A DNA stretch of 64,000 bases, from NCBI RefSeq assembly GCF_058153355.1, contig NZ_CM177019.1, one strand, 5' to 3'. Both the position numbers and the translations under genes were made by a program. Below the pieces are notes generated by a model. The model did no database searches, was not told where the DNA came from, and saw nothing but the letters and a program-made list of their open reading frames with translations. Position 1 is the stretch's first letter. Each line of letters begins with the position of its first letter. Of this stretch, positions 7,129 to 57,959 are shown piece after piece.

Positions 7129-7986
7129 TTAATCCTGTTGTAGCAGGGCAAGATTACGAAAGCACGCTCCCCGCAAGGACTGACGCCAGGTAGTTTCTGT
7201 CCATGGCTGCCCTTTCCATTCACACGTGAAATCAATAAGTTCATCAGGGACATCGCAAACAATGTGAAGACGGATTTCTTCTCTGCCGTGACTCTTTTCA
7301 CTAATTGCGTAACTGTCATGCTCTGGATTATTTAATTCTTTCAGTGAGAATTTTTCCTCAAAGGCTTTATTTAGCCGCCCCTGGTTTCCTTTTACAGCGA
7401 ATAAATAATCACCTCCCTGTTTTTGTATCTTCTCTGCAATATCTTTCTGGCAACCCATCGCATCAGTTGTGATGATTTTTCCTTTAATATCCAGCATGTT
7501 AAGAAGTTCAGGGATAGCTGTAATTTCATTTGATTTCTCATCCGTCCTGATCTGTCCGATGACCAGACTGTGCATTGTTGAGAACGCACTAATGACATGA
7601 ATCGCTCCCCTGCAGCGACTCTTGTCATAAGAATGCCGGAGCTTTTTTCCATCAATTGCAATGACGTCTTTATCATCTGAAGAATGGCAGTCACGCATCC
7701 AGTTAATAAAGCACTCGTGAAATTTTGCAGGACTGATACAGGATACAACTCTGGCAATGGTATCGTGAACAGGAATACCATTTTCAAAATCACCCTATTG
7801 CTTCAAAAAATCGAGATGTGTTTCCCCAAAATCCTCTATATCTTCTCAACCTTCTGCACCCGAAATAACGGCGCAAATAGTCAACAGTAGAATATCCGAT
7901 AATTTATGTTCCACTTTCCAGGCTTGTCTGTAATCGGGGATAATAGAAATATGTTCCATCAATTTTTTAAGTACCATTTTGTTCTC
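7129..7986 (-). pseudogene. Decayed H-repeat (ISAs1-family) transposase: frameshifted and internally deleted
   Basis: N-terminus [43 protein letters not shown] then stop; body in two overlapping frames (7392-7793 and 7129-7698); the canonical C-terminal peptide [12 protein letters not shown] appears out of frame after ...EWKG, indicating an internal deletion. Confidence 0.8.
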
Positions 7987-8370
7987 CTTAATTATGTAAG
8001 GAGTATTTGATCATGTATAAGCAATAAAAAACAGCTTCAGGTAATGAGGAATATCTCAATTTTTAAACATAAAATGCGAATTGTTTAGTACAAAAAAGCA
8101 GCGTTACGTGATCTTTTCCTGCCATGGGTCTTTACCACAGCAGCTGGGGTTGTTTGGGACCGACTTCCGACAGCAGATCCCGGTGAGCCTGCCACCATCT
8201 CTTCACAAGCTTATGCTTATTACATGCAAAACGTCCCGTTTTGCATCTTTGTGCCTACGGCACACGATGATCTTTCCCTGAGGAGTCATACTTTGTTAGG
8301 ATAAAAAACCTTTAAATAGCTTTCCTACCTTCCAATAAAAACCACAGAATCAGCAATGTTTAAATTTCAA

Positions 8371-9192
8371 TCAGTATTGAGTTTCATTTGTGATCTCTAC
8401 ATTCACTCCTGATGGCTTCTCGCTAAATAAATATCTCATACTCTCATTCTCCATAATCACGGATATATTTAACCCTCCATGAATCCATTGATATGTAATA
8501 TTTTTATCATCAATCTTATAACTAAAATTCCCAATTGGTAACTTTTCCTTCAGATAATTATTCTCCTCATAACTAAGTGCTAGTAATTTATCATAGGCAC
8601 CTTTTAAATCAAAACCCTCAAAATAGCAATGTTCTTTTGATGAACCATCAAATTCTTTTCTGGGATTAGCATCATGACACCAAGTCGACCATTTTTCTTT
8701 TTTTTCCTCAGAAGTATGTTTTTTTTCATTGAAAAACAGCACATAATATTTCTCTGGGATTATTATCTGATCATTAATTTTTAAGATATCTCTATATGGC
8801 CCAGGACATTTATGAACAGAATCCATAATGGATATTTCTTCAGGAAAAAGTTTGCCTTCATGTTTAAATAATTTCCTGTACATACCAACTGTTGTTTGTG
8901 ATAAGTAATATGACAAGGGCTTTTTTTTAACTTCAACATAGTCAGTCGAGCATACGAGACTATTTTCCAATGAATAATCATTTATCGTTAGCTTTCGCCC
9001 ATCCATATTTATCACTACCTTACTGTATGTTTCATCAAGGGCACTTATTATAAGCGAATCATGTTTACCAAAAACATCGATATCTGAAACATTATGATAA
9101 ATCCATACGGTATTTTTAGTATTATCATTAGAATATGCGATACCATGAATAAAAAAAATCATTAGAAAGCCCATAAAAAATTTACCGCGCAT
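8371..9192 (-). CDS. Secreted (signal-peptide) protein of unknown function; candidate immunity protein for the upstream effector
   Basis: 273-aa ORF, N-terminal hydrophobic signal peptide (MRGKFFMGFLMIFFIHGIAYS), very AT-rich and K/N/E-rich; AAGGA ribosome-binding site; starts 19 bp after the effector stop. Confidence 0.6.
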   Translation of the reverse strand: MRGKFFMGFLMIFFIHGIAYSNDNTKNTVWIYHNVSDIDVFGKHDSLIISALDETYSKVVINMDGRKLTINDYSLENSLVCSTDYVEVKKKPLSYYLSQTTVGMYRKLFKHEGKLFPEEISIMDSVHKCPGPYRDILKINDQIIIPEKYYVLFFNEKKHTSEEKKEKWSTWCHDANPRKEFDGSSKEHCYFEGFDLKGAYDKLLALSYEENNYLKEKLPIGNFSYKIDDKNITYQWIHGGLNISVIMENESMRYLFSEKPSGVNVEITNETQY

Positions 9193-9211
9193 ACAAATTC
9201 CTTAATGTAAA

Positions 9212-11977
9212 TCAATGTGATGAATCATAAACATTATTCAAAAATAGATTTTGTTCTTTTCGGCGTCGTATAACAAGGCCAGCAACTCCGCCATTTGTAA
9301 TATCAAGAAATTCATTGGAGGCACCTATATAATCCTTTTGATTAAGTTTAGAATTCAAATTCGGTGCCTTACTCATGCTCCCCATATTAAACAATAAACT
9401 TATTAACGCATCAAATTCGTACTGATATAAATCCACACTCACTGTTCTTTTAAGCTCACTAACAAAACCAGATAAACGCTCTTCAAATAACTCATCAGCT
9501 TTAGCAATTGTTATTCCATGCTGAAATTCTTCTGGTAAAACTATATCATTGCAACGTTGTGTAGCAATTAAATGTCCATAACCTATAGTACAGTAACCTT
9601 CTGAATCATTATATGCTGTTAGTTGTAAATATTCCCATTCTTTTATAAAACCCTTACCTTTATTTGATACATTCAAATCTGCAATGGCGATCCTTTCAGC
9701 AGTTTGTTCTTCGTTAAAACTATTGATGTACCCCTCCATCAATATATCAATTGGATCATGTAAATCATCCCGTCTATAAAATGGAGGTATTTGTGTATTA
9801 TTCGGCGGAGGCGCTCCATTGTTTCCTGGATAGTATTCAAAATGCAACATATAAACCACTTCTTCCCCAGGGATTATAACTGGAGGCCTCCCTGTATCAG
9901 GTTTAATCATCAACCCTGTTTTGGCAATTATTGCCCCTTGCATAATATGATCATTAATCTTTACTAAAATACTTGATGGATCAACTTCACCATACCGCAC
10001 ATAGAAATGCCGACCATCTCTAGTCGAGTGCTCAATCGTAACTTGCCAAGTACCGTAATAGTATCGAGAAATAGCTCTTACTATTCCGTTGCAAACCGAA
10101 ACAATATCAGACTTCGGTTCCGTATATAGATCACGCGCTCCATGTTTTCTATTACCATTATTACGATTTCGTCCAAATATAGCTTGAGAGGCATTTCGAT
10201 CTGTCAAGGCAGCAGCCCAAAAATAATTTTTCCACTTTCCATTTTTGTCATTATTAGGTTTTACTTTTAAAGGAAAAATAATTTGATTTGATTTTTTCTG
10301 AGATAATGAATCTAAAAACACAACCGGATGAAAATGCCACACAGCATCATCACTATTAAACGGAGATACCCCGCTCATCCACTCCAGATCCAGCTGCCAC
10401 TTCTCACAGTATGCCACTTCCTCTGTATCCAGATCTTTATAAAATCCTTCCCACCGCCCTGTCGAGCGCCCTCCGTACCATTCGCTGTGGTGTTTAACTA
10501 TCAGATGATTCACCACATTTCTCACCAGTGGTTCACGCACGATCAGCGCCTGTCTGATCTCTTCCTCCGTCACTTTTCCATCACCGTCCTGATCCATACC
10601 CGCCATCAGCTCACGATAAAAGGGCGGTACCTGCTCATACAGCCACTCATCTCCCTGTTCTGCGGCACGGCTTATTGAGTCAAACGCTTCCGGCACCCAT
10701 CCTTCGTACGGGCTGTACGTCATGTCACCGCTGCTGTTCTCCTCCAGCGGTTGAAAACCCAGCTTCAGTAAATCATACTGTCCGGCCTCTTCAACATCCT
10801 TTTGTGGCAGCCAGCCGGTTCCGGTGATATTAAACCACCACTGCTGCGATTCATCCGTGACTGGTGTCGTGGCTTCCCGCGGAAGAACGCGCTGAGCACC
10901 CAGCGTGGCTGCGGTTGCGGTAAATACCTCCTGTCCCGGAACGGCCTGCCGGGTGTATAAAATTATCCCTTTTGGTGCCAGAACAGTCCGTTTTTCTCCC
11001 TTAACGCCTGCCGGGTTGGATAAGAACTTTGGCATATTCGGGTCTGTACTCAGAACCTCCAGATGGACGAACCACTCGCGCTCAATCTCACCGCTTCCCT
11101 CGCCAGGATAATCCTCGCATCCCATAAATCCGACCGGTGTTCCGGCACTGACTTTCCACTCTTCCGTTTCGTCGACCGTCTGTACCGAGTCAAAAATGCC
11201 TTTTGCCTTCGCCTTCTGCATCCACTCAGGCATCAGCATCTGTATTTCGCCATCTGACTCCATCAGATCCGGATCCAGGGTCACCCAGTACTGCTCATTC
11301 CCCGGTTTATTGCCTTCCAGCAGGCGAACCAGTCCGAATGTCGTCAGGACCGGCTGGCCGTTATTGGTCACGTAAAAACGTCCGGTCCGGGATGACACAA
11401 ACCGATCTCCCGCATTAAGTGTCCTGTTTCCGCTGATTTTCGGGGGTATCCAGTACGTGGCATGATCTCCGCTTTCCTGCCCCTCGGGAAGGCCGTTCTT
11501 TCCCGGGATGTATCGGTGCAGCAATATGCCACCATGCCCGGTTTTAACTTTATAGCAGGGGGAGCCGGGATAATCGTTCACCGGGGCCAGATGCATATAG
11601 AGACAGTAAAATTCCAGCCAGCTTTCTTTTTTTTGCGGGTCTGGCTGGCACTGCGATTTCACCAGAACAAATGTGCTGCTGTAACGGAGTTGCTGCCCTT
11701 TGTAGGGGCCTTTCAGGTAATCATTATTTATCCGGTACGCCGCAATGGTGCCATCGGCCATAAACTGAAGAGGAACCGGTTCTCCGGTAGCGGCGGTATC
11801 CGGTTTCAGGGCTGATAACGGATTAGACACGTCACTGATATGTATCCCGCCGTGCCACAGCCCGTTTCCACCCAGCAGCCAGGTTCCGTGCGCTTCTTTG
11901 TCAATAAGCCGCATTATCTCATCCAGTGAGCGAAACTCTTTGCCTTCTTTATCCCTGATGGGATGGCTGATTTTCAT
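9212..11977 (-). CDS. Candidate T6SS cargo effector: multidomain peptidoglycan hydrolase (M23/LytM-like domain plus C-terminal T4-lysozyme-like GH24 domain), with an EF-hand-like loop
   Basis: 921-aa ORF starting 9 bp after the vgrG stop with an AAGGA ribosome-binding site; C-terminus carries the phage-lysozyme signature EWEYLQLTAYNDSEGYCTIGYGHL; middle region has KHGARD (HxxxD) ... YMLHFEY (M23-like); DQDGDGKVTEEE calcium-binding-type loop. Confidence 0.7.
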   Translation of the reverse strand: MKISHPIRDKEGKEFRSLDEIMRLIDKEAHGTWLLGGNGLWHGGIHISDVSNPLSALKPDTAATGEPVPLQFMADGTIAAYRINNDYLKGPYKGQQLRYSSTFVLVKSQCQPDPQKKESWLEFYCLYMHLAPVNDYPGSPCYKVKTGHGGILLHRYIPGKNGLPEGQESGDHATYWIPPKISGNRTLNAGDRFVSSRTGRFYVTNNGQPVLTTFGLVRLLEGNKPGNEQYWVTLDPDLMESDGEIQMLMPEWMQKAKAKGIFDSVQTVDETEEWKVSAGTPVGFMGCEDYPGEGSGEIEREWFVHLEVLSTDPNMPKFLSNPAGVKGEKRTVLAPKGIILYTRQAVPGQEVFTATAATLGAQRVLPREATTPVTDESQQWWFNITGTGWLPQKDVEEAGQYDLLKLGFQPLEENSSGDMTYSPYEGWVPEAFDSISRAAEQGDEWLYEQVPPFYRELMAGMDQDGDGKVTEEEIRQALIVREPLVRNVVNHLIVKHHSEWYGGRSTGRWEGFYKDLDTEEVAYCEKWQLDLEWMSGVSPFNSDDAVWHFHPVVFLDSLSQKKSNQIIFPLKVKPNNDKNGKWKNYFWAAALTDRNASQAIFGRNRNNGNRKHGARDLYTEPKSDIVSVCNGIVRAISRYYYGTWQVTIEHSTRDGRHFYVRYGEVDPSSILVKINDHIMQGAIIAKTGLMIKPDTGRPPVIIPGEEVVYMLHFEYYPGNNGAPPPNNTQIPPFYRRDDLHDPIDILMEGYINSFNEEQTAERIAIADLNVSNKGKGFIKEWEYLQLTAYNDSEGYCTIGYGHLIATQRCNDIVLPEEFQHGITIAKADELFEERLSGFVSELKRTVSVDLYQYEFDALISLLFNMGSMSKAPNLNSKLNQKDYIGASNEFLDITNGGVAGLVIRRRKEQNLFLNNVYDSSH

Positions 11978-11986
11978 GTTCAGTCC

Positions 11987-14186
11987 TTATCGTGAGAATC
12001 TTCCCGGCCGTTGTGGCGGTACCTTATCCTGCTGGGGAGGATCAAAGGCTTCCTGTACACTTTTCCGTGGTGGCTCCGCCCCTTCAGTTCCAGGTCCGCC
12101 ATTGTCATAATCTGCCAGCGCTTTCAAAACCGCCGGTCGTAGCGTCGGCACCGGCGTTCCCGGACTACCGCCGCTATTGAGATTGATTTTCGGCCCGACG
12201 ATGTCCACGCCCCCTGAATGGATGACCACAAACGAACCACCCACCTTTAGGGTGATTTTACCGCCACTCTCCAGTACGATTTCATTCCGGACCTTCATTC
12301 CCAGCGCACCGGTAATCTTCCTCGCCAGGTCGCCCTTCACCTCCAGACTGTGCTTTCCCTCCACCAGGCTGATATGGTTCCCCGTCGTCTTATGCTCCTG
12401 CTTCCCTTCCACCGTCACTTTACGGTCGTTTCTGACATACAGGCCGTCATCGTGACTCACGCTCACCGTCCGGTCATTCGTCACCTTCAGCGTCTGGTCA
12501 TTACGTACCGTTATGCGCCGGTCGTTCGCCACCGTGATACTCTGGTCGTGACCCCCTTCTTTTCTGGTGCCGACCTCAACCGTCTGCCCCTTCACCACCC
12601 TTATCTTCTGGTCGTTACCGATGGTCTCCGTATGGTCATGCTTCACGTCCGTCGTCCGGTCGTTAAGCACCTCCGTGTCCATGTTCTTCTGCGCGTGGAT
12701 ATACACCTGCTCACTGTCCGTCGCATCCTCGAAACGCAGTTCATTAAAGCCGCTTCCTTTATAGGTCTTCGAGCGGATGGTCATCTGCGTCCGCGTGCCC
12801 GGTAAATCCCCCGGTGAACGGTTATCTTCATGGTAGGTCCGCCCCGTCACAATGGGCTGGTCCGGGTCGCCGTTCAGAAAGTCCACTATCACTTCCTGAC
12901 CCACACGCGGTATCGCCAGATTGCCGAACCCCGGTCCCGCCCATGCCTGCGACACCCGTATCCAGCACGAACTCTCCTCCGTCATCCCGTGATAACGGTC
13001 CCAGTGAAACTTCACCCGTACCCGGCCATGCTCGTCGCAGAATATCTCCTCACCCTTCGGCCCGGTCACGATGGCACTCTGCGGGCCGTCCACCTTCGGC
13101 TTCGGCAGCGGCGCGTGACGCCACGTCCTGTCTGCCGGTATCACCTCAAACTGATTGCTCAGTGTCGTCCCTTCACCGTGACTCCCGTGCAGCGCCTGCG
13201 GCTGTTCTCCCCGCAGTGTGCTTCCCACAACCTGCCATTCCCGGTTCAGCGTCTCTGAGGGATGGCCCGTCAGCCGGAACCGCGTTCCCGGCCACAGCCG
13301 CGCCGTGTTACACACCCCGCTCGCCGTCTCCGCCCCGTTCCGCCACCCTTCCGTCTGGTAACGCGCAAAATCCTGGCCATGCTGCTCATCCTTGAAACGC
13401 CCCGGATAATCAAATATCTCGTACTGCGTTCCCTGCCCGTTCAGGCTCTCCCCGTCATGGCTGTAGTACCCCGGCCACCCCGGCGTTTTGAACGTATAAT
13501 CCTGCGTCTCCACCGACGCCACGCTTATCTGCGCACGGTAACGAAACTCACTGATGTACTCCGTCGTTCCCCCGGTCGTGGTATTCGGGTTAAACGCCAG
13601 CGCCCCCATTCCCGTCAGCCCCGCCACGTCATCACACACCGCCAGCTTCTGCTCCGGCCCTTCCTGACCGCAGCGCTCATAAAAGAAGATACCTTCCTCC
13701 GCCCACAGCCGGGTCAGGAATGCCAGGTCGCTCTCCCCGTACTGCACGCAGAACTCCCGCGCCGGGTGCGCCTCATAGAACAGCGGCATCCACGCCGTCA
13801 CCCCGTTCTCTCTCAGAAGCTGTGCTGATATCGTCTGAATGTCCTGCTGCTGGAAGATACGGAAGTTCTGCCGTAACCCTGCCCGCCACAGCGGCGGGCT
13901 GATGCTCAGGGAATAACGCATCTGCCAGTCGTTGTTCTCACCGAGCTGCACCTCCGTCACGATACCGCTGACGTAACGCTGCGGGATATCACCCTGCCAG
14001 ACCGTCAGCACCGCGCTCTTCTCCAGAAAATCCTCCGCCATCAGGTCGGACAGCCCGCTGGCGATATCCACATCCAGGATGAACGACGTGCAGTGGTGCT
14101 GGTACAGACGGAAGCTCACCACCGCCGTCGCCATCTCCACGATACCGTCCACCGACAGCGTGAAACGTAATCCTTCTGAGGACATA
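11987..14186 (-). CDS. vgrG: Type VI secretion spike protein VgrG (gp27/gp5-like)
   Basis: About 733 aa from MSSEGLRFTL; characteristic VgrG N-terminus, gp5-like beta-helix repeats (VTVxNDRxxTV...) and Pro-rich C-terminal tail; the maximal ORF extends 11 codons further upstream. Confidence 0.85.
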
Positions 14187-14360
14187 TAAACCCCATAGCT
14201 ACCGCACTCATGGTGCAAACCATACGGGCTTATAAGAAAGGCTTAAGTGAGATATCTGCCAGATAGCAACTATTAGGAAAATATTTATATATATTTCATG
14301 AATATATATTTCGGTTGGTATAACGGTGTCTAAATATTCCTCTGAACATCTTCCTGATAC

Positions 14361-14394
14361 AAAAAAACCGCCAGCGTCTCCGCTGGCGGTTTTC
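14361..14394. terminator. Rho-independent terminator downstream of ybfA
   Basis: GC hairpin accgccagcg/cgctggcggt flanked by A-run and T-run. Confidence 0.6.
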
Positions 14395-14415
14395 TTTGAA
14401 CGTCATGTTTAGCAA

Positions 14416-14622
14416 TCAGTAAAAATCACCGGTTGCCTTTTCGGCCTGATCCATCCACACCGGTTTATCGCTGGTTTTCGACCAGACGCGATGCAGGTAG
14501 CTGTAAAAGCGGGCGCGGTCTTTCCAGAAAAGCATGAAAGGCAGCGCCAGGACGCCCGCTGCAACCGCATAAGTACGGCGTAAAAAGATAAGCCATGCAG
14601 GATATTCTCTGTAGAGTTCCAT
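14416..14622 (-). CDS. ybfA: DUF2517 small membrane protein YbfA
   Basis: 68-aa ORF recognised as YbfA. Confidence 0.8.
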
Positions 14623-14830
14623 ACTTTTCTCCCCCTTTTGTATCTACCCGGTGAATGGCACCGGAAAAATGAATTTGTTTATCTGATGAAAATAGTACCG
14701 CCTTTTGTGTAATTTTACTACTCATCCGACCACTTATTTTTGCTTATTGATGGTTTATTTACATTCACTCTGTAATTAAGTTACACAAAAGTTAAATTAA
14801 TACTAAACATTAGTTAAATCATGGCTTTTG

Positions 14831-14857
14831 CCATTTTTATACTTTTTTTACACCCCG
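14831..14857 (+). promoter_or_regulatory. T-rich KdpE operator in the kdpFABC promoter
   Basis: ccatttttatacttttttttacacc about 80 bp upstream of kdpF; recalled KdpE binding site. Confidence 0.5.
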
Positions 14858-14934
14858 TCCGCAGATTTTTGCGAAATCTTTGCAGCCAGAATTCTACCCT
14901 TCCGGTATCACTTTTAGGCCACTGGAGGTGCACT

Positions 14935-15024
14935 GTGAGTGCAGGCGTGATAACCGGCGTATTGCTGGTGTTTTTATTACTGGGTTATCTGGTTTATGCC
15001 CTGATCAATGCGGAGGCGTTCTGA
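14935..15024 (+). CDS. kdpF: Kdp-ATPase small subunit KdpF
   Basis: 29-aa hydrophobic peptide [29 protein letters not shown]; GTG start preceded by GGAGG; stop overlaps kdpA start. Confidence 0.8.
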
Positions 15025-16697
15025 TGGCTGCGCAAGGGTTCTTACTGATTGCCACGTTTTTACTGGTATTAATGGTACTGTCGCGTCCTTTAGGCAGCGG
15101 GCTGGCGCGGCTGATTAATGACATACCTCTTCCCGGTACAGCGGGCGTTGAGCGCGTACTTTTTCGTTTACCTGGCGTCTCTGACCGTGAGATGAACTGG
15201 AAGCAGTATCTCTGTGCCATTCTCGGCCTGAACATGCTGGGGCTGGCAGTGCTGTTTTTTATGTTGCTCGGTCAGCACTATCTGCCGCTTAACCCGCAGC
15301 AACTGCCGGGGCTGTCGTGGGATCTGGCGCTGAATACCGCCGTCAGCTTTGTCACGAATACCAACTGGCAATCTTACAGCGGTGAAACCACATTAAGCTA
15401 TTTCAGCCAGATGGTGGGCTTAACGGTACAAAACTTTCTTTCTGCCGCCAGCGGGATTGCGGTGATTTTTGCCCTCATCCGTGCATTTACCCGCCAGAGC
15501 ATGAGCACACTCGGGAATGCCTGGGTCGATCTGCTACGCATCACGTTATGGGTGCTAGTCCCTGTGGCGTTGTTGATCGCACTGTTTTTTATTCAACAAG
15601 GTGCGCTGCAAAACTTTCTGCCCTATCAGGCGGTGAATACCGTTGAAGGAGCGCAACAGCTGTTACCCATGGGGCCTGTAGCTTCTCAGGAAGCGATCAA
15701 GATGCTCGGTACTAACGGCGGTGGCTTCTTTAATGCCAACTCGTCGCATCCGTTTGAAAACCCAACCGCACTGACCAACTTCGTGCAGATGCTGGCGATT
15801 TTCTTGATCCCAACAGCGCTGTGCTTTGCCTTTGGTGAAGTGGCAGGCGATCGCCGCCAGGGGCGCATGTTGCTGTGGGCGATGTCAGTGATTTTTGTCA
15901 TCTGCGTAGGCGTGGTGATGTGGGCAGAAGTTCAGGGTAATCCTCATCTGCTGGCGCTGGGTGCGGACAGCAGCATCAATATGGAAGGTAAAGAGAGCCG
16001 TTTCGGCGTGCTGGTCAGTAGCCTGTTTGCGGTCGTGACTACAGCGGCTTCCTGTGGCGCGGTGATTGCGATGCATGATTCGTTTACCGCTCTCGGCGGC
16101 ATGGTGCCGATGTGGCTGATGCAAATTGGTGAAGTGGTGTTCGGCGGTGTCGGTTCTGGTCTTTACGGCATGATGCTGTTTGTCCTGCTGGCGGTGTTTA
16201 TTGCTGGGCTGATGATTGGTCGTACGCCGGAATATCTGGGTAAAAAAATCGACGTACGCGAGATGAAACTGACCGCACTGGCGATTCTGGTCACTCCAAC
16301 GCTGGTACTGATGGGCGCAGCACTGGCGATGATGACCGACGCCGGACGTAGCGCCATGCTCAACCCTGGCCCGCATGGTTTTAGCGAAGTGCTGTACGCC
16401 GTGTCATCCGCCGCTAACAACAACGGCAGCGCCTTTGCCGGATTAAGCGCCAACTCTCCGTTCTGGAACTGTTTACTGGCGTTCTGCATGTTTGTCGGTC
16501 GCTTCGGGGTGATTATCCCGGTAATGGCAATTGCCGGTTCGCTGGTGAGTAAAAAGAGCCAACCCGCCAGCTCCGGCACGCTGCCAACGCACGGCCCGCT
16601 GTTTGTTGGCCTGTTAATCGGCACCGTGTTGCTGGTTGGCGCACTGACCTTTATCCCTGCCCTGGCGCTTGGTCCGGTGGCGGAATATCTCTCCTGA
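15024..16697 (+). CDS. kdpA: Potassium-transporting ATPase subunit A
   Basis: 557 aa from [12 protein letters not shown]...; the six-frame ORF over-extends upstream. Confidence 0.9.
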
Positions 16698-16719
16698 TGA
16701 TATTGAGTGAGCACTGAAT

Positions 16720-18768
16720 ATGAGTCGTAAACAACTGGCGCTATTCGAACCAACACTTGTCGTTCAGGCGCTGAAAGAAGCGGTGAAAAAATTAAACCCG
16801 CAGGCGCAATGGCGCAATCCGGTGATGTTTATCGTCTGGATCGGCAGTCTGCTGACCACCTGTATTAGCATCGCGATGGCAAGCGGCGTGATGCCTGGCA
16901 ATGCGCTGTTTAGCGCGGCAATTAGCGGCTGGCTGTGGGTCACCGTACTGTTCGCTAATTTCGCCGAGGCGCTGGCAGAAGGCCGCAGTAAAGCGCAGGC
17001 CAACAGTCTGAAAGGGGTGAAAAAAACTGCCTTTGCCCGCAAGCTGCGTGAGCCGAAATATGGCGCTGTGGCAGACAAAGTTCCTGCCGATCAACTGCGT
17101 AAAGGCGATATCGTACTAGTAGAAGCTGGCGATATTATCCCCTGCGATGGTGAAGTCATTGAAGGGGGTGCATCGGTCGATGAAAGCGCCATCACTGGGG
17201 AATCGGCACCGGTGATCCGTGAATCCGGTGGCGATTTTGCCTCCGTCACTGGCGGCACGCGTATTCTTTCTGACTGGCTGGTGATTGAGTGCAGCGTTAA
17301 CCCCGGTGAGACATTTCTGGATCGGATGATCGCGATGGTGGAAGGCGCGCAGCGACGTAAAACGCCGAACGAGATTGCCCTGACCATTCTGCTGATTGCC
17401 CTGACTATCGTCTTTTTACTGGCAACCGCCACGCTGTGGCCGTTTTCCGCGTGGGGCGGTAATGCAGTCAGCGTAACGGTACTGGTGGCGCTGTTGGTCT
17501 GTCTGATCCCAACCACTATTGGCGGCCTGTTGTCAGCGATCGGCGTCGCCGGAATGAGTCGGATGCTGGGCGCGAATGTGATTGCCACCAGCGGACGTGC
17601 AGTTGAAGCGGCGGGCGACGTGGACGTCCTGCTGCTGGATAAAACCGGCACCATCACACTCGGTAACCGTCAGGCATCAGAGTTTATCCCTGCGCAGGGC
17701 GTAGAGGAAAAAACGCTGGCCGACGCAGCACAACTGGCTTCGCTGGCCGACGAAACGCCGGAAGGCCGCAGTATTGTGATCCTCGCCAAGCAGCGTTTTA
17801 ACCTGCGCGAGCGCGATGTGCAGTCGCTTCACGCCACTTTTGTACCGTTTACTGCGCAAAGTCGAATGAGCGGGATCAATATCGACAACCGTATGATCCG
17901 TAAAGGTTCTGTCGATGCCATTCGCCGCCATATTGAAGCTAACGGTGGTCACTTCCCTGCCGATGTCGATCAAAAAGTCGATCAGGTTGCGCGTCAGGGG
18001 GCCACGCCTCTGGTAGTGGTGGAAGGTTCCCGCGTGCTGGGCGTTATTGGGCTGAAAGATATCGTCAAAGGCGGCATTAAAGAGCGCTTCGCCCAACTGC
18101 GCAAAATGGGCATTAAAACGGTGATGATTACCGGTGATAACCGTCTGACTGCCGCCGCGATAGCTGCGGAAGCGGGTGTCGATGATTTTCTCGCCGAAGC
18201 GACACCGGAGGCCAAGCTGGCATTGATTCGTCAGTATCAGGCGGAAGGCCGTTTGGTGGCGATGACCGGCGACGGCACCAACGATGCTCCGGCGCTGGCG
18301 CAGGCAGATGTCGCGGTAGCGATGAACTCCGGCACTCAGGCGGCGAAAGAAGCGGGCAATATGGTGGATCTCGACTCTAACCCGACCAAGTTGATCGAGG
18401 TGGTGCATATTGGCAAACAGATGCTGATGACCCGTGGCTCGCTCACTACCTTCAGCATCGCCAACGATGTGGCGAAATACTTCGCCATTATTCCGGCGGC
18501 GTTCGCGGCAACGTATCCGCAGTTAAATGCGCTGAACATCATGCGCCTGCATTCGCCCGACTCCGCCATTCTCAGTGCGGTCATTTTCAACGCCTTGATT
18601 ATCGTCTTTTTGATTCCCCTGGCGTTAAAAGGCGTGAGTTATAAACCGCTTACCGCTTCTGCCATGTTGCGCCGTAACTTATGGATTTACGGTCTGGGTG
18701 GGCTGCTGGTGCCGTTTATTGGTATCAAAGTCATTGATTTACTGCTGACCGTTTGCGGTCTGGTGTGA
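16720..18768 (+). CDS. kdpB: Potassium-transporting P-type ATPase subunit B
   Basis: 682 aa; P-type ATPase motifs DKTGTIT and [12 protein letters not shown]. Confidence 0.95.
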
Positions 18769-18776
18769 GGTTTACC

Positions 18777-19349
18777 ATGAGTGGATTACGTCCGGCATTA
18801 TCAACATTTCTCTTTTTGTTACTGATTACTGGCGGTGTTTACCCGCTGCTGACCACCGCGCTGGGGCAATGGTGGTTTCCCTGGCAGGCCAATGGTTCGT
18901 TGATTCGCGAAGGTGATACGGTGCGCGGCTCGGCATTAATCGGGCAGAATTTTACCGGCAACGGCTATTTTCATGGTCGCCCGTCGGCAACGGCAGAAAT
19001 GCCCTATAATCCACAGGCTTCTGGCGGGAGCAATCTGGCGGTCAGTAACCCTGAGCTGGATAAACAAATCGCTGCACGCGTTGCCGCATTACGGGCCGCT
19101 AACCCGGACGCCAGCACGAGCGTTCCGGTTGAACTGGTGACGGCGTCAGCAAGCGGGCTGGACAATAACATTACCCCGCAAGCGGCGGCCTGGCAGATTC
19201 CTCGCGTGGCGAAAGCGCGTAATCTCAGCGTTGAACAGCTCACGCAGCTGATCGCAAAATATAGCCAACAACCGCTGGTGAAATATATCGGCCAGCCGGT
19301 CGTCAACATTGTCGAACTCAATCTGGCGCTGGATAAGCTTGATGAATAA
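18777..19349 (+). CDS. kdpC: Potassium-transporting ATPase subunit C
   Basis: 190 aa from [11 protein letters not shown]... Confidence 0.9.
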
Positions 19350-22026
19350 CGAACCCTTACGTCCCGACCCCGATCGTCTGCTGGAACAAACTGCCGCGCC
19401 GCACCGGGGGAAGCTGAAAGTTTTTTTCGGTGCCTGTGCAGGCGTCGGGAAGACCTGGGCGATGCTGGCAGAAGCCCAACGACTGCGGGCGCAAGGGCTG
19501 GATATTGTGGTTGGCGTGGTTGAAACTCACGGACGGAAAGATACCGCCGCAATGCTGGAAGGGCTGGCTGTTCTGCCGCTAAAACGCCAGGCGTACCGTG
19601 GGCGGCATATCAGCGAGTTTGATCTCGATGCCGCCCTCGCCCGCCGTCCGGCGCTGATCTTAATGGACGAACTGGCGCACAGTAATGCGCCAGGTTCTCG
19701 TCATCCTAAACGCTGGCAGGACATTGAAGAGCTGCTGGAAGCAGGCATTGATGTTTTCACTACCGTCAACGTTCAGCATCTGGAAAGTCTGAATGATGTG
19801 GTCAGTGGCGTCACCGGAATTCAGGTACGGGAAACCGTGCCCGATCCTTTTTTTGATGCTGCCGACGACGTGGTGCTGGTGGACTTGCCCCCGGACGATC
19901 TGCGCCAGCGGCTGAAAGAAGGCAAAGTCTATATTGCCGGGCAGGCGGAGCGCGCCATTGAACACTTTTTCCGCAAAGGCAATCTGATCGCCCTGCGCGA
20001 ACTGGCACTGCGCCGTACTGCCGATCGCGTAGATGAGCAAATGCGCGCCTGGCGGGGGCATCCTGGCAAAGAGAAAGTCTGGCACACGCGCGACGCGATC
20101 CTTTTATGTATTGGGCATAACACCGGCAGCGAAAAACTGGTCCGCGCGGCGGCGCGGTTGGCGTCACGGCTGGGGAGCATCTGGCACGCGGTGTATGTTG
20201 AAACCCCTGCCCTGCACCGCTTACCGGAGAAAAAACGTCGGGCAATTCTCAGCGCCTTACGTCTGGCGCAGGAGCTGGGCGCGGAGACGGCAACACTTTC
20301 TGATCCAGCGGAAGAGAAAGCGGTAGTGCGTTATGCCCGTGAACATAATCTCGGCAAGATTATTCTCGGTCGCCCGGCCTCGCGCCGCTGGTGGCGTCGG
20401 GAAACGTTTGCTGACCGACTGGCGCGAATCGCCCCCGATCTCGATCAGGTGCTGGTCGCGCTTGATGAACCACCCGCCCGCACGATTAACAACGCGCCGG
20501 ATAGCCGCTCTTTTAAAGACAAGTGGCGGGTACAGATTCAGGGATGCGTGGTTGCCGCCGCGTTATGCGCCGTTATCACCTTAATTGCCATGCAGTGGCT
20601 GATGGCGTTTGATGCCGCCAACCTAGTGATGCTGTATCTGCTTGGCGTGGTGGTGGTGGCGCTATTTTATGGACGCTGGCCTTCGGTGCTTGCTACCGTC
20701 ATTAATGTGGTGAGTTTCGATCTCTTTTTTATCGCCCCACGCGGCACGCTCGCCGTCTCTGATGTGCAGTATCTGCTGACTTTCGCGGTGATGTTAACCG
20801 TCGGGCTGGTGATCGGGAATCTTACTGCTGGCGTACGTTATCAGGCGCGGGTAGCCCGTTACCGCGAGCAACGCACACGACACTTATATGAAATGTCGAA
20901 AGCTCTGGCTGTGGGACGCAGTCCGCAGGACATCGCCGCCACCAGCGAACAATTTATTGCTTCCACGTTTCATGCCCGCAGTCAGGTGTTGTTGCCCGAT
21001 GACAACGGCAAATTGCAGCCGTTGACACATCCGCAAGGAATGACGCCGTGGGACGATGCCATCGCGCAATGGAGTTTTGATAAAGGCCTGCCTGCGGGCG
21101 CGGGCACCGACACGTTACCCGGTGTGCCATACCAGATTTTGCCGTTAAAAAGCGGCGAGAAAACCTACGGACTGGTGGTGGTGGAACCGGGGAATCTGCG
21201 CCAGTTGATGATCCCGGAACAGCAACGCCTGCTGGAGACGTTCACGCTGTTAGTTGCCAATGCCCTGGAACGCCTGGCACTGACCGCCAGCGAAGAACAG
21301 GCGCGGATGGCAAGCGAACGAGAACAGATCCGCAACGCCCTGCTGGCGGCGCTTTCGCATGATTTACGCACGCCGCTTACGGTGCTGTTCGGTCAGGCAG
21401 AAATCTTAACGCTCGATCTGGCAAGCGAAGGATCGCCTCACGCCCGCCAGGCCAGCGAGATTCGTCAGCATGTGCTGAACACGACCCGACTGGTGAATAA
21501 TCTACTGGATATGGCGCGAATTCAGTCCGGCGGCTTTAATTTGAAGAAAGAGTGGTTAACGCTGGAAGAAGTGGTCGGCAGCGCGCTGCAAATGCTGGAA
21601 CCGGGTTTATCCTCGCCCATCAACCTTTCTCTGCCAGAACCGCTGACCTTAATCCACGTTGACGGGCCACTCTTTGAACGGGTGCTGATTAATCTGCTGG
21701 AGAACGCGGTGAAATACGCGGGTGCGCAGGCCGAAATTGGTATCGATGCCCACGTTGAGGGCGAAAATCTACAACTGGATGTCTGGGATAACGGCCCCGG
21801 TCTTCCACAAGGCCTGGAGCAGGCGATATTCGATAAGTTTGCTCGTGGAAATAAAGAGTCGGCGGTGCCGGGCGTTGGGCTTGGGCTGGCAATTTGTCGG
21901 GCGATTGTGGATGTACACGACGGCACCATTACCGCGTTCAACCGACCGCAAGGTGGTGCCTGTTTTCGTGTTACACTTCCCCAGCAAACTGCCCCTGAAC
22001 TTGAAGAATTTCATGAGGATATGTGA
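19342..22026 (+). CDS. kdpD: Sensor histidine kinase KdpD
   Basis: 894 aa from [14 protein letters not shown]; histidine-kinase H-box (LSHDLRTPL) and ATPase motifs; start overlaps kdpC stop. Confidence 0.9.
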
Positions 22027-55748: not shown

Positions 55749-57626
55749 TTACGGTTCAGGGATACAAGCCACATCGCCATATTGGGGATGCCGAATAATT
55801 GCCTGCGGATCAAGCGAGCGCGTCCTGTCCATTTGGATTAACCCGTTCTTCGCCATAACAAATATCTTTCTACCATCCGCTGAAAAACGAAGATGATTAA
55901 CGTAGCTGGCAGGATAAACGCCAATAATCTGCCCGGCATTAATATTGAGCAGGATGACATAACCTTGCAGGCCATATGACACCAACGCTAAATACTGACC
56001 GTCCGGGCTAATACCCTCAACAGAATAAACGCTCCTGCTACACCATTGCGTCATAATGCTGGCTTGTTGATCCCCTGTGCTTATACGTGAAATCCCCTGA
56101 CTATCGGCAAAAATAACCTCACCATTTTTTGGTCGGAATCCCATCGCAGAAACGACACCACGCGCATCACCTGCGGGAAAGTCTTCTTTCTGATGCGTGA
56201 TGGTATTGATCCGCACGATGTTACCTCTGCCTGCTCCTGGAACCAGTAATGTTTTTTCATCCGGGGAAAGTGCCATAACCCAGGCGCCTGGTTTACCGCT
56301 CGTCCCCGTCCCGTCGTATTTCTCCAGTGCGATATCCGCCACATGCTGATAAGTCACCAGATCAATCGCTGACACACTATTACTGGTGCGATTCATCACC
56401 CAGGCTTTTGTGCCATCACGCGAGAGGATAAGGCTGTCAGGATGGGCGCCGGTGGTAATCGACTGAATAATCTCCCCCGTCGCCACGTTAACGACCGATA
56501 ATGCATTCGCTTCAAATGAAGTCGCATACAGCAACTTTTCATCGGGGCTTAACACCAGCGATCTGACGCCCTGATCTTTACAGCCACCACAATGTTTGAC
56601 TGACTTTTCTTTCGCTATGGGCGCTGTAAAGGTATGCAGGATTTTCTTTTGTCCGAGGTCGAAAACAACAATACTGTTCGTGTTTTCAATTGCGGCATAT
56701 AACGTATTACCATCCCGATTGATCGCCATATCATGGATATCGGCAATCTCAGCGAGCAAATCACCACTGGCCTGTTCACGACTTACCGGAGCGGATAATG
56801 TTTCCCTGAGGGCATTGCGTTCCTCCGCTAACTGCTGCTTTTTATGCCGTCGCTCTTGTTCAATCTCCTGCGGATAAAACTCTTCACGCAGGCTTTGCCT
56901 GACCTGCAAAACTGATTCATCAATCTGCTGCTGCACAAGCCAGATAGCCCCGGTCAGTAGAAGACTACCCGCAACAATAATCCCACCTTCCGTAACGAGC
57001 CGGTTTTGCCCAGATAAACGCGCACTCAGCCAACCCAACGCTCCACCTGCCATCAGGCCGCCAATGTGGCAAGCGTTATCTATTCCTGCTTGCCGGGCAC
57101 CATACAACAGTGTCAGCGCCACCATACCCAACAGAGAAAATACTCGCCGCTGGTTTTTATGGTGTGTACCCGCACCTGAAGAAAGCTGTGTTGCTATCGC
57201 AGCGCCAGCTATTCCCATAATTGCCCCGGATGCCCCAACGCTGATGACTATCTGCTCACTTTCGCGTAACGCATAACAGGCGCTGATGAGCCCACCAAAG
57301 ATGCCGGAGAATAACCAGATAATCAGGAGTCGCCATTTCCCCAGTATCCGTTCCGCCACTGTCCCCACCACCAGGAGTGCAAACATATTCATCAGCAAAT
57401 GGGAAAAACTACTGTGCAGAAAAACACTGCTCAATAAGCGCCAGGGTTCACCCGACAACGTGAGAGAGGCAACGTTAGCGCCGAGATGGATGAGTGCGGA
57501 TTGATCGACTTCTTCATAACTCATCCATTGTGCGAGGTAACAAAATATCCCAACACATAGCGCAAAAAGGATCAGGGTTATTGCGGGTAATTGAACATTT
57601 AACGGCTTAACCGAAGATGCAGACAT
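55749..57626 (-). CDS. Rhomboid-family intramembrane serine protease fused to a C-terminal beta-propeller (YVTN-like repeat) domain
   Basis: About 625 aa from MSASSVKPLN (AAGGAAG ribosome-binding site); rhomboid signatures GASGAIMG (GxSG) and HIGG; coiled-coil linker; repeated S/T-rich beta-strand motifs (e.g. NSIVVFDL, NALSVVNVATGE, NSVSAIDL). Confidence 0.7.
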   Translation of the reverse strand: MSASSVKPLNVQLPAITLILFALCVGIFCYLAQWMSYEEVDQSALIHLGANVASLTLSGEPWRLLSSVFLHSSFSHLLMNMFALLVVGTVAERILGKWRLLIIWLFSGIFGGLISACYALRESEQIVISVGASGAIMGIAGAAIATQLSSGAGTHHKNQRRVFSLLGMVALTLLYGARQAGIDNACHIGGLMAGGALGWLSARLSGQNRLVTEGGIIVAGSLLLTGAIWLVQQQIDESVLQVRQSLREEFYPQEIEQERRHKKQQLAEERNALRETLSAPVSREQASGDLLAEIADIHDMAINRDGNTLYAAIENTNSIVVFDLGQKKILHTFTAPIAKEKSVKHCGGCKDQGVRSLVLSPDEKLLYATSFEANALSVVNVATGEIIQSITTGAHPDSLILSRDGTKAWVMNRTSNSVSAIDLVTYQHVADIALEKYDGTGTSGKPGAWVMALSPDEKTLLVPGAGRGNIVRINTITHQKEDFPAGDARGVVSAMGFRPKNGEVIFADSQGISRISTGDQQASIMTQWCSRSVYSVEGISPDGQYLALVSYGLQGYVILLNINAGQIIGVYPASYVNHLRFSADGRKIFVMAKNGLIQMDRTRSLDPQAIIRHPQYGDVACIPEP

Positions 57627-57959
57627 AAGGTGATTCTTCCTTGAAAAGACAGGTAAAAAAGCATTTTTCCCGTGTGCAGTTATCATCCCGGCAAACGTCC
57701 CATACCGAAAAGTTAACTCTGTCCGAAATATGACTTTTTCAGCCTGAAATTACAATCGTAATTAATTCACCCCTAAGTATTTTTTGGCATGTAAGTTGCT
57801 TTATTTACTGTGTAAGCAATGAAATCAGCCGCAACGCAACCGGGTTGCACCAACACAAATCAGCGGTAGCACCAAAAAGGTGCGGTTTAAGAGTTTTGCT
57901 TCGGAATGGTGCGGCGCATCTCGCAAAAACAAACAATAAAACATCAATATCTTTACATT

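Follow-up and report, generated by a model that had tools for sequence, protein, structure and literature searches.

Chimeric effectors of type VI secretion systems (T6SS) that carry peptidoglycan hydrolases behind a conserved N-terminal domain include TseP of Aeromonas dhakensis, reportedly described with its partner TsiP by Liang et al. in 2021, and they are among the closest counterparts of the three-gene cassette considered here, which occupies positions 8371–14185 of a 64,000-nucleotide stretch of contig NZ_CM177019.1 (assembly GCF_058153355.1; hereafter, the window). The N-terminal domain of TseP (TseP-N) binds VgrG2, which is encoded upstream of it; it supports T6SS assembly, for which it is needed, and is a zinc amidase superposable on 3SLU, an M23 protein (PMC11893102); its coding sequence is of higher GC (guanine plus cytosine) content than that of the C-domain (Wang et al., eLife 2025, PMC11893102). 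A second relevant pair, SARI_02625/SARI_02624 of Salmonella arizonae, is encoded in Salmonella pathogenicity island 21 (SPI-21) and was established as a T6SS effector and its immunity protein by competition and periplasmic-toxicity assays; SARI_02624, a 276-aa protein with a Sec signal peptide, partly rescues toxicity (Parra-Calisto et al., Front Microbiol 2026, PMC12992299).

Here we describe a locus in which vgrG, an effector gene related to both systems and a putative immunity gene replace the Rhs element that most Escherichia coli have at the same chromosomal site. Judged by homology and conserved gene order, the three-gene unit is a T6SS spike, cargo and immunity module, and the interval is very probably an intact auxiliary ('orphan') T6SS cargo island in the ybfA–ybgA (RhsC) hotspot. 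Already described are orphan islands of vgrG and its cargo, hotspots of Rhs and vgrG, chimeric effectors of the TseP type, the SARI_02625/SARI_02624 family and Rhs-style displacement; what is new, to a modest degree, is two leads, the coupling of a VgrG tail ending in RGRFSR to one effector N-domain and the probable re-arming of an orphan toxin.

The cassette and its chromosomal site

Three large open reading frames (ORFs), all on the minus strand, make up the interval in the ORF map. The spike gene vgrG (tssI) spans 11987–14218 (minus strand; 743 aa) from a TTG codon or 11987–14185 (732 aa) from the first ATG, as read from the ORF map and start-codon context. Its stop codon lies 9 nt from the ATG of a 921-aa effector gene (9212–11977, minus strand; stop codon 9212–9214), which in turn ends 19 nt from the ATG of a 273-aa gene (8371–9192, minus strand), and AGGA-type ribosome-binding sites precede the latter two genes. 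All three ORFs are full length and free of frameshifts, next to a decayed ISAs1 gene. The GC content falls in steps from 59.7% in vgrG through 53.0% in effector residues 1–555 and 35.1% in residues 556–921 to 30.9% in the 273-aa gene, the window mean being 51%. The first-pass annotation of this DNA had proposed just such a compact minus-strand unit, which the ORF map and the two short gaps confirm. Its full-length spike also stands, with a corrected end: the span given, 11987–14186, is not a multiple of three and its translation holds 39 stops, the ATG is actually at 14185, and the 743 aa quoted is the longest ORF, from the TTG.

The spike is recognized by TIGR03361 at 586 bits (cutoff 186) and by TIGR01646 at 424 bits (cutoff 122), with Pfam matches to Phage_GPD (3e-74), Phage_base_V (5e-14) and two copies of Gp5_trimer_C (6e-22). 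The layout is complete—a gp27-like hub, a gp5 OB-fold and a β-helix, the last with 24-nt periodic repeats (repeat families D1 and D2) at 12450–12672—and the VgrG domains on which the first-pass annotation had staked its reading are thus present, with TIGR03361 above its cutoff. Of the vgrG genes in T6SS core clusters, the most similar aligns for about 430 nt close to the 5′ end, at 79% nucleotide identity; its cluster adjoins yafV and was found in 546 of 5426 complete E. coli genomes (~10%).

Residues 556–921 of the effector (9215–10312, minus strand; 35% GC) form a predicted toxin module in which an M23-like domain (about residues 611–715; 9833–10147, minus strand) precedes a phage-type GH24 muramidase (residues 779–908; 9254–9643, minus strand; Phage_lysozyme, 7.5e-25). 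The muramidase has the GH24 catalytic triad (E782, D791 and T797) together with a family profile and fold match, and the C-terminal region also matches a PHROG endolysin (6e-32) and endolysins in the PDB (~1e-16). The Peptidase_M23 match is weak and partial (4e-5; residues 611–688, model positions 2–73 of 96). The domain keeps H612xxxD616, H650 and H712, and its catalytic competence is uncertain because the first histidine of the HxH motif is a methionine, M710. Aligned over 371 positions with P0346, a partial protein of 867 aa from S. enterica subsp. arizonae, the module shows 64% identity; the figure is 67% for the effector of E. coli SW070919 and 69% for an Enterobacter effector. Full-length Enterobacter homologues are likewise 921 aa long and 69% identical. 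The 921-aa homologue of Enterobacter hormaechei is encoded within a T6SS core cluster, flanked by vgrG and PAAR/tssM, and the SW070919 homologue is a 1024-aa effector encoded directly after vgrG in such a cluster. With M23 and GH24 domains, and with homologues that follow vgrG in T6SS clusters, the genes downstream of the spike are not housekeeping genes, the outcome that the first-pass annotation had named as refuting its reading.

The 273-aa protein begins MRGKFFMGFLMIFFIHGIAYS, in which a hydrophobic core can be read between a basic n-region and a cleavage region of small residues; this predicted Sec-type signal peptide, of about residues 1–21 (9130–9192, minus strand), agrees with its earlier description as a signal-peptide protein. 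It has no match in Pfam, NCBIfam or PHROGs, and a word-indexed homologue search found five relatives. It is 40% identical (2e-73) to the 278-aa protein that follows the Enterobacter effector and 32% identical (1e-46) to the 277-aa protein that follows the SW070919 effector, and copies 100% identical to it in E. coli drafts always come after this toxin module. By analogy with the described pairs, we infer that it is the cognate immunity gene, with a periplasmic product.

On the left, the cassette is flanked by ybfA (14416–14622, minus strand; ORF map and annotated orthologues), with kdpFABC beyond. On the right lies a decayed ISAs1/H-repeat (ybfD-like) transposase gene (7129–7977, minus strand) with two in-frame stops and its C-terminus cut off, which matches NF033564 (transpos_ISAs1) at 7.7e-56 over profile positions 66–229 of 314 and is 96–97% identical to the ybfD pseudogenes of E. 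coli N96 and JNE23-011. This is the right-hand boundary element common to Rhs elements, and it is followed by ybgA, phrB and dtpD. Between the immunity gene and this boundary, 3′ of the former, a 162-bp cassette-end segment (8119–8280) recurs after other effector/immunity cassettes: copies 96–97.5% identical follow the pyocin immunity gene of MFDS1022581 and occupy 8661–8822 of the N96 locus. In E. coli JNE23-011 the same flanks enclose an Rhs core, immunity genes and ybfD, and an Rhs core adjoins ybfA in 3543 of the 5426 complete E. coli genomes; vgrG adjoins ybfA in two, and in a third, N96, IS66 lies in between. In the complete E. coli relatives with vgrG at the site, vgrG is accompanied by genes for an S-type pyocin and its immunity protein, and no complete E. 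coli genome was found that holds at least 80% of the window module.

Within the window there is no Rhs-sized ORF in the ORF map and no RHS family match in the profile searches, the large ORFs of the interval being only vgrG, the 921-aa gene and the 273-aa gene. Nor does the window hold T6SS core genes (tss/hcp), as judged by synteny and by NCBIfam matches of the terminal ORFs: two comparisons with annotated genomes of E. coli, covering nei to chiP and glnS/nagE to lnt, together with terminal ORFs assigned to pxpA, pxpC, gltI, gltK, an ATP-binding cassette (ABC) ATPase and rihA, leave the remainder of the window as housekeeping DNA. The first-pass annotation had placed a T6SS vgrG–effector–immunity module at an Rhs-type locus, between ybfA and a decayed H-repeat transposase, with no tss/hcp genes and no YD-repeat core, and had identified the site as that of RhsC in K-12. 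Profiles, homologues and synteny bear out this reading: the flanks are upheld by the ORF map, NF033564 and frame translation, the RhsC site by JNE23-011 and the Rhs-bearing genomes, and both absences by the searches above. Its label of an orphan cargo island holds within the 64-kb window, to which the scope of 'orphan' is limited.

Several further features of the site and its surroundings were recorded. The resident vgrG at the ybfA locus of N96 (L003:12340-15795) and of MFDS1022581 (L012:10531-13986) is annotated as C-terminally incomplete; an S-type pyocin (DNase) gene begins 66 nt further on, with its immunity gene behind it, an arrangement that resembles a split form of the evolved VgrG-nuclease VgrG-NucSe1 of SPI-21. 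A group II intron (ltrA) lies between cassette and ybfD in these closest relatives (L003:6998-8320; L012:8338-9659), and is not present in the window. The core flanks (14200–20000 and 34000–58900) reach at best 97.7% identity, with MFDS1022581, MFDS1019527 and N96, and usually show about 96.3–96.8% identity to complete E. coli genomes, from which a somewhat divergent Escherichia lineage is suggested. Farther away, at 55749–57686 (minus strand), an ORF of 645 aa joins a rhomboid protease domain to β-propeller repeats and is annotated in E. coli HS as a rhomboid family protease; the 25-kb stretch around it is contiguous in 3321 of the 5426 genomes. A literature search on vgrG, Rhs and the H-repeat in E. 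coli returned no directly relevant open-access paper.

The effector N-domain and the VgrG tail

Residues 1–555 of the effector (10313–11977, minus strand; 53% GC) constitute a TseP-N-like domain that comprises an M23/LytM-like fold, SH3b-like portions and an EF-hand, whose loop, D462–E473, lies at 10559–10594 (Pfam EF-hand_1, 9.8e-4 over residues 455–478). The domain is closed by the junction motif W547-H-F-H-P-V-V-F-L-D556. It is widespread and conserved, with 682 homologous representatives at 50% clustering, is consistently linked to vgrG, and is found fused to interchangeable peptidoglycan hydrolases (GH19, PF11860 muramidase, pesticin-like, GH108, CHAP, and M23 plus GH24), the switch of C-terminal domain sitting just past WHFHPVVFLD at residue 556. 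Its conserved residues include W41-H42-G-G-x-H46, H305 and E307, of which H42, H46, H305 and E307 are near-invariant among 78 diverse homologues. An AlphaFold2 (AF2) model from a diverse alignment reached a predicted local distance difference test (pLDDT) score of 91.7 and has an M23-like, 3SLU-like zinc-site fold.

The link to TseP runs through P0232, an 844-aa representative at 50% clustering with a C-domain that matches TseP-C (crystal structure 8XCL) at 6e-79. The window N-domain matches P0232 with 26–38% identity (phmmer, 6e-35; BLASTP, 3e-26 and 5e-21) in an alignment that takes in WHGGIH, YMHL, VHLEV, the EF-hand and KHxSEWY. A sister E. coli protein with the same N-domain, P0009, carries a TseP-C-like C-domain (8XCL, 4e-8). 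By analogy with TseP-N, the domain would load the effector onto VgrG and serve a structural role, and it is possibly a zinc amidase. A very common E. coli effector family (P0275-P0387; 849–899 aa), whose C-domains are GH108 or GH19, has its N-terminal ~65% in common with the 1024-aa SW070919 effector and shows the same toxin swapping on a second branch of the N-domain.

The proposed counterpart of this domain on the spike is the C-terminal tail of VgrG, about 42 residues (11990–12115, minus strand) that end in DPPQQDKVPPQRPGRFSR, the GRFSR codons at 11990–12004 (minus strand) forming the end of the window vgrG. VgrG tails split according to cargo after GPKINLNxGGxPGTP. That of the window ends ...PPQRPGRFSR and equals, bar one residue farther upstream, the tail of the VgrG at the yibF locus of MFDS1022581, where the effector's N-domain is the same; at the same or similar loci, VgrGs with different cargo, such as a pyocin or an M23 protein of 690 aa, have tails unrelated to it. 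Upstream of this N-domain, VgrGs end ...RRGRFSR in Klebsiella, Lelliottia, Enterobacter and Pantoea, ...QRGRFSR in Cronobacter and ...QRIFSR in Salmonella, and those with a ...RGRFSR-type end lie mostly 9 nt ahead of the effector gene. Outside E. coli and Salmonella, the VgrGs with recorded domains (all but that of Lelliottia) belong to the DUF2345 class; the Enterobacter member and the VgrG of the window share only 24% identity. With increasing divergence of the N-domain the motif decays: GRNSR, GNISK and GSISG accompany N-domains 42%, 59% and 39% identical to that of the window, and FLFSE stands at a TseP-like locus.

The association between tail and cargo comes from about ten hand-picked loci rather than a census, and a degenerate DNA pattern for GRFSR, stop, ribosome-binding site and ATGAAA, scanned over 100,044 species-representative genomes, recovered one locus, in Lelliottia. 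A literature search for 'GRFSR' gave nothing relevant and no T6SS paper with the motif. We suggest from these sequence patterns that the cargo-type-specific tail may be a docking element for the effector N-domain, or, short of that, that it moves together with the cargo cassette. Loading through an adaptor was considered and rejected: no DUF4123, DUF1795 or DUF2169 gene lies within the 9-nt and 19-nt gaps. In one E. hormaechei assembly (L015:9850-10000), vgrG has a premature stop 18 codons before its RGRFSR end (AEQ*QDG...RGRFSR), a natural tail-less variant directly upstream of a 921-aa effector gene.

Mosaic origin and competing readings

Different parts of the cassette have different closest relatives. 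Positions 14149–12350, vgrG without its 3′ end, are closest to the vgrG at the ybfA locus of N96 (88–100% in sliding identity to the N96 and MFDS ybfA loci), and positions 13099–10400, which contain the 3′ part of vgrG, the tail and the N-domain, are closest to the cassette at yibF (the rhsA site) of MFDS1022581, at 98.7–100%. The same yibF cassette, whose 829-aa effector has a GH19 C-domain, is 51–81% identical over 14299–13100, the 5′ part of vgrG and its upstream sequence. Positions 10843–8107 are 99.5% identical to a 5′-truncated orphan of 551 aa, followed by the same immunity gene, in N96 and several drafts; upstream of the orphan toxin, N96 and two draft contigs (L005 and L006) have an H-repeat/transposase fragment. 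Other E. coli hold the toxin only as this 5′-truncated copy. The best full-length relative is 71% identical, and exact look-up found neither the 921-aa sequence nor that of VgrG in a collection of 15 billion proteins. A second orphan, at the yibF locus of MFDS1022581 (L001:5352-6812), joins the EF-hand end of the N-domain to an N-acetylmuramidase beside an ISAs1 fragment; it starts at the same truncation point (window 10843) and has the 'orphan-type' single-nucleotide polymorphisms (SNPs) of the N96 orphan.

Full-length and orphan genes have a 530-bp tract in common, within which SNPs of the window are orphan-type at or below 10542 and full-length-type at or above 10751; from 10751 to 10840 its bases match the full-length gene of the MFDS yibF locus and not the orphans. 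A crossover within the tract is indicated, since the SNP type switches inside it, and the SNP pattern would place the junction of the full-length-type 5′ part and the orphan-type 3′ toxin block at 10542–10751. Sliding identity suggests a further crossover in vgrG at 12950–13250, between a resident-type 5′ half and a yibF-type 3′ half. The cassette is a mosaic, most likely a recombinant of a resident vgrG 5′ half, a yibF-type vgrG 3′ half with tail and N-domain, and a low-GC, orphan-type block of toxin and immunity genes. Most simply read, these sequences point to recombination of a full-length cassette with an orphan into a newly armed effector; the reverse polarity would also fit. We advance, tentatively and as something short of an even proposition, two linked ideas: that ...PPxRRGRFSR is a portable docking tag for the TseP-N-like domain, and that the window effector is a re-armed orphan. 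If the first were true, unrelated VgrG classes could take up one and the same cargo family, as the tag would move along with the effector cassette; if the second were, homologous recombination within about 530 bp would extend the orphan activation of Rhs and CdiA to VgrG cargo.

Opposed to re-arming, and in our judgement possible though rather doubtful, is an ancestral, undisrupted arrangement from which the N96-type orphans arose when an incoming vgrG–pyocin cassette displaced the effector cassette. The classical Rhs model is one of displacement by incoming cassettes, and the window locus is indeed the simplest form, with vgrG, effector, immunity gene and H-repeat, whereas N96 adds a pyocin pair, an H-repeat fragment, a group II intron and IS66 at the same site. 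An undisturbed ancestor sits uneasily, however, with a vgrG whose 3′ half and adjoining N-domain are 99–100% identical to the yibF-locus cassette while its 5′ half is resident-type, and with the SNP switch inside the common tract. The two different orphans, moreover, have one truncation point and the same orphan-type SNPs, which suggests that the orphan form is older than the chimera.

Other doubts concern what the intact cassette does rather than how it arose. It would be unlikely, in our view, for the genes to be a silent relic, intact in a host that lacks a compatible T6SS or leaves them unexpressed, so that the effector never reaches a target, with only the immunity gene of use against neighbours armed with the same toxin; nonetheless, the window lacks T6SS core genes, the related core cluster is confined to about 10% of complete E. 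coli genomes, Rhs-type loci with an Rhs core at this site persist in T6SS-less strains, and relatives retain the truncated orphan toxin module beside a full immunity gene. Decay is visible in the adjacent ISAs1 gene but not in the cassette, whose three ORFs with their ribosome-binding sites are undamaged and whose effector has the 921-aa length of its Enterobacter homologues; the closest relatives, too, have several vgrG copies (six matching places in MFDS1022581), as is typical of T6SS-positive strains. The notion of a phage-derived lysis or tail-lysin module, with GH24 and M23 serving phage entry or lysis, draws on the C-terminal domain, best matched in both sequence and fold by phage endolysins, and on the low-GC block. 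We regard it as very improbable and rejected it: the gene lies 9 nt past a bona fide T6SS VgrG, its homologues sit in T6SS core clusters between vgrG and PAAR/tssM, the N-domain family keeps to vgrG, and no phage structural, holin or integrase genes are nearby.

Several points nevertheless weigh against an active cargo island. The firing apparatus is only presumed to lie in the host genome, given a window free of T6SS core genes, and the yafV-adjacent core cluster with the closest vgrG is of limited distribution, as counted above. The M23-like domain of the toxin module may be non-catalytic, the Pfam matches behind M23 (4e-5) and the EF-hand (1e-3) are weak, and the AF2 model of the full-length effector is of low confidence (pLDDT 68). 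The connection to TseP passes through the cluster representative P0232 as a proxy for the TseP sequence. The presumed immunity protein belongs to no named family and was compared with its Enterobacter and E. coli counterparts rather than with SARI_02624 itself, and the published SARI_02624 rescued toxicity only in part (PMC12992299).

Proposed action and comparison with described systems

We nonetheless favour the cargo-island reading and propose the following sequence of events, in which secretion, toxicity, immunity and a VgrG-binding domain are taken by analogy from TseP/TsiP and SARI_02625/SARI_02624. A VgrG trimer would form the spike, and the 921-aa effector would bind it directly, without an adaptor, most likely through the N-domain (residues 1–555) on the RGRFSR-ending tail. 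A T6SS encoded elsewhere in the genome would fire the loaded spike into neighbouring Gram-negative cells, where, in the target periplasm, the GH24 muramidase would cut the glycan strands of peptidoglycan and the M23-like domain or domains would cut peptide or amide bonds, so that the target cell lyses. The 273-aa protein, exported by Sec to the periplasm of the producer, would neutralize toxin arriving from sister cells.

On this reading, the E. coli RhsC hotspot can house a VgrG-borne peptidoglycan-hydrolase weapon in place of an Rhs toxin, a vgrG occupancy seen in about 3 of the 5426 complete genomes, and the window would provide an intact E. coli copy of a toxin/immunity pair that other E. 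coli hold as a truncated orphan only. The co-variation of RGRFSR with the TseP-N-like domain across two VgrG classes yields a testable spike-matching hypothesis for a widespread effector family, and the tail could also guide the loading of engineered cargo. The cassette leaves the current understanding of T6SS biology unchanged.

Set beside described systems, the window effector is closest in its toxic half to SARI_02625, with which it has in common the order EF-hand, M23-like domain and GH24 endolysin, the triad spacing E-x8-D-x5-T (E782/D791/T797 in the window, E890/D899/T905 in SARI_02625) and a position ahead of a ~275-aa protein with a Sec signal. The S. arizonae protein P0346 has this same domain order and, as noted above, a toxin module 64% identical to that of the window. 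The N-terminal ~555 residues of the window effector, by contrast, fall on another branch, with 29% identity to the S. arizonae protein over residues 277–555 and a length ~110 residues shorter. The partner VgrG is also of another class, that of the window being 25% identical to the VgrG of the SW070919 cluster, and the SARI pair resides in a T6SS core cluster whereas the window pair belongs to an orphan island within an Rhs hotspot.

The delivery half instead recalls TseP: a homologous N-domain of ~560–600 aa encoded just after vgrG, an EF-hand, an M23-like (3SLU-like) zinc-site fold, a chimeric join to a lower-GC peptidoglycan-hydrolase C-domain, and an immunity gene downstream. The two differ in the toxin, M23-like plus GH24 in the window and a GH19-like lysozyme in TseP-C (8XCL), and the N-domains are 26–38% identical when P0232 stands in for TseP. 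Orphan vgrG modules of Pseudomonas, Acinetobacter and Vibrio likewise place vgrG, effector and immunity gene away from the core cluster, with the VgrG C-terminus specifying the cargo; the window module is distinguished by its location in an E. coli Rhs hotspot, its TseP-N-like M23 plus GH24 effector and its lack of an adaptor gene. With RhsC it has in common the chromosomal site between ybfA and ybgA and the right-hand ISAs1/H-repeat remnant, and with Rhs elements in general a conserved delivery part, a short junction motif (here WHFHPVVFLD), a low-GC polymorphic toxin, an immunity gene and, in relatives, 5′-truncated orphan toxin/immunity copies with a homology tract usable for recombination. 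Unlike them, it has no YD-repeat shell, PAAR or Rhs core: its toxin is a separate cargo on VgrG, with a predicted target in the peptidoglycan of the periplasm.

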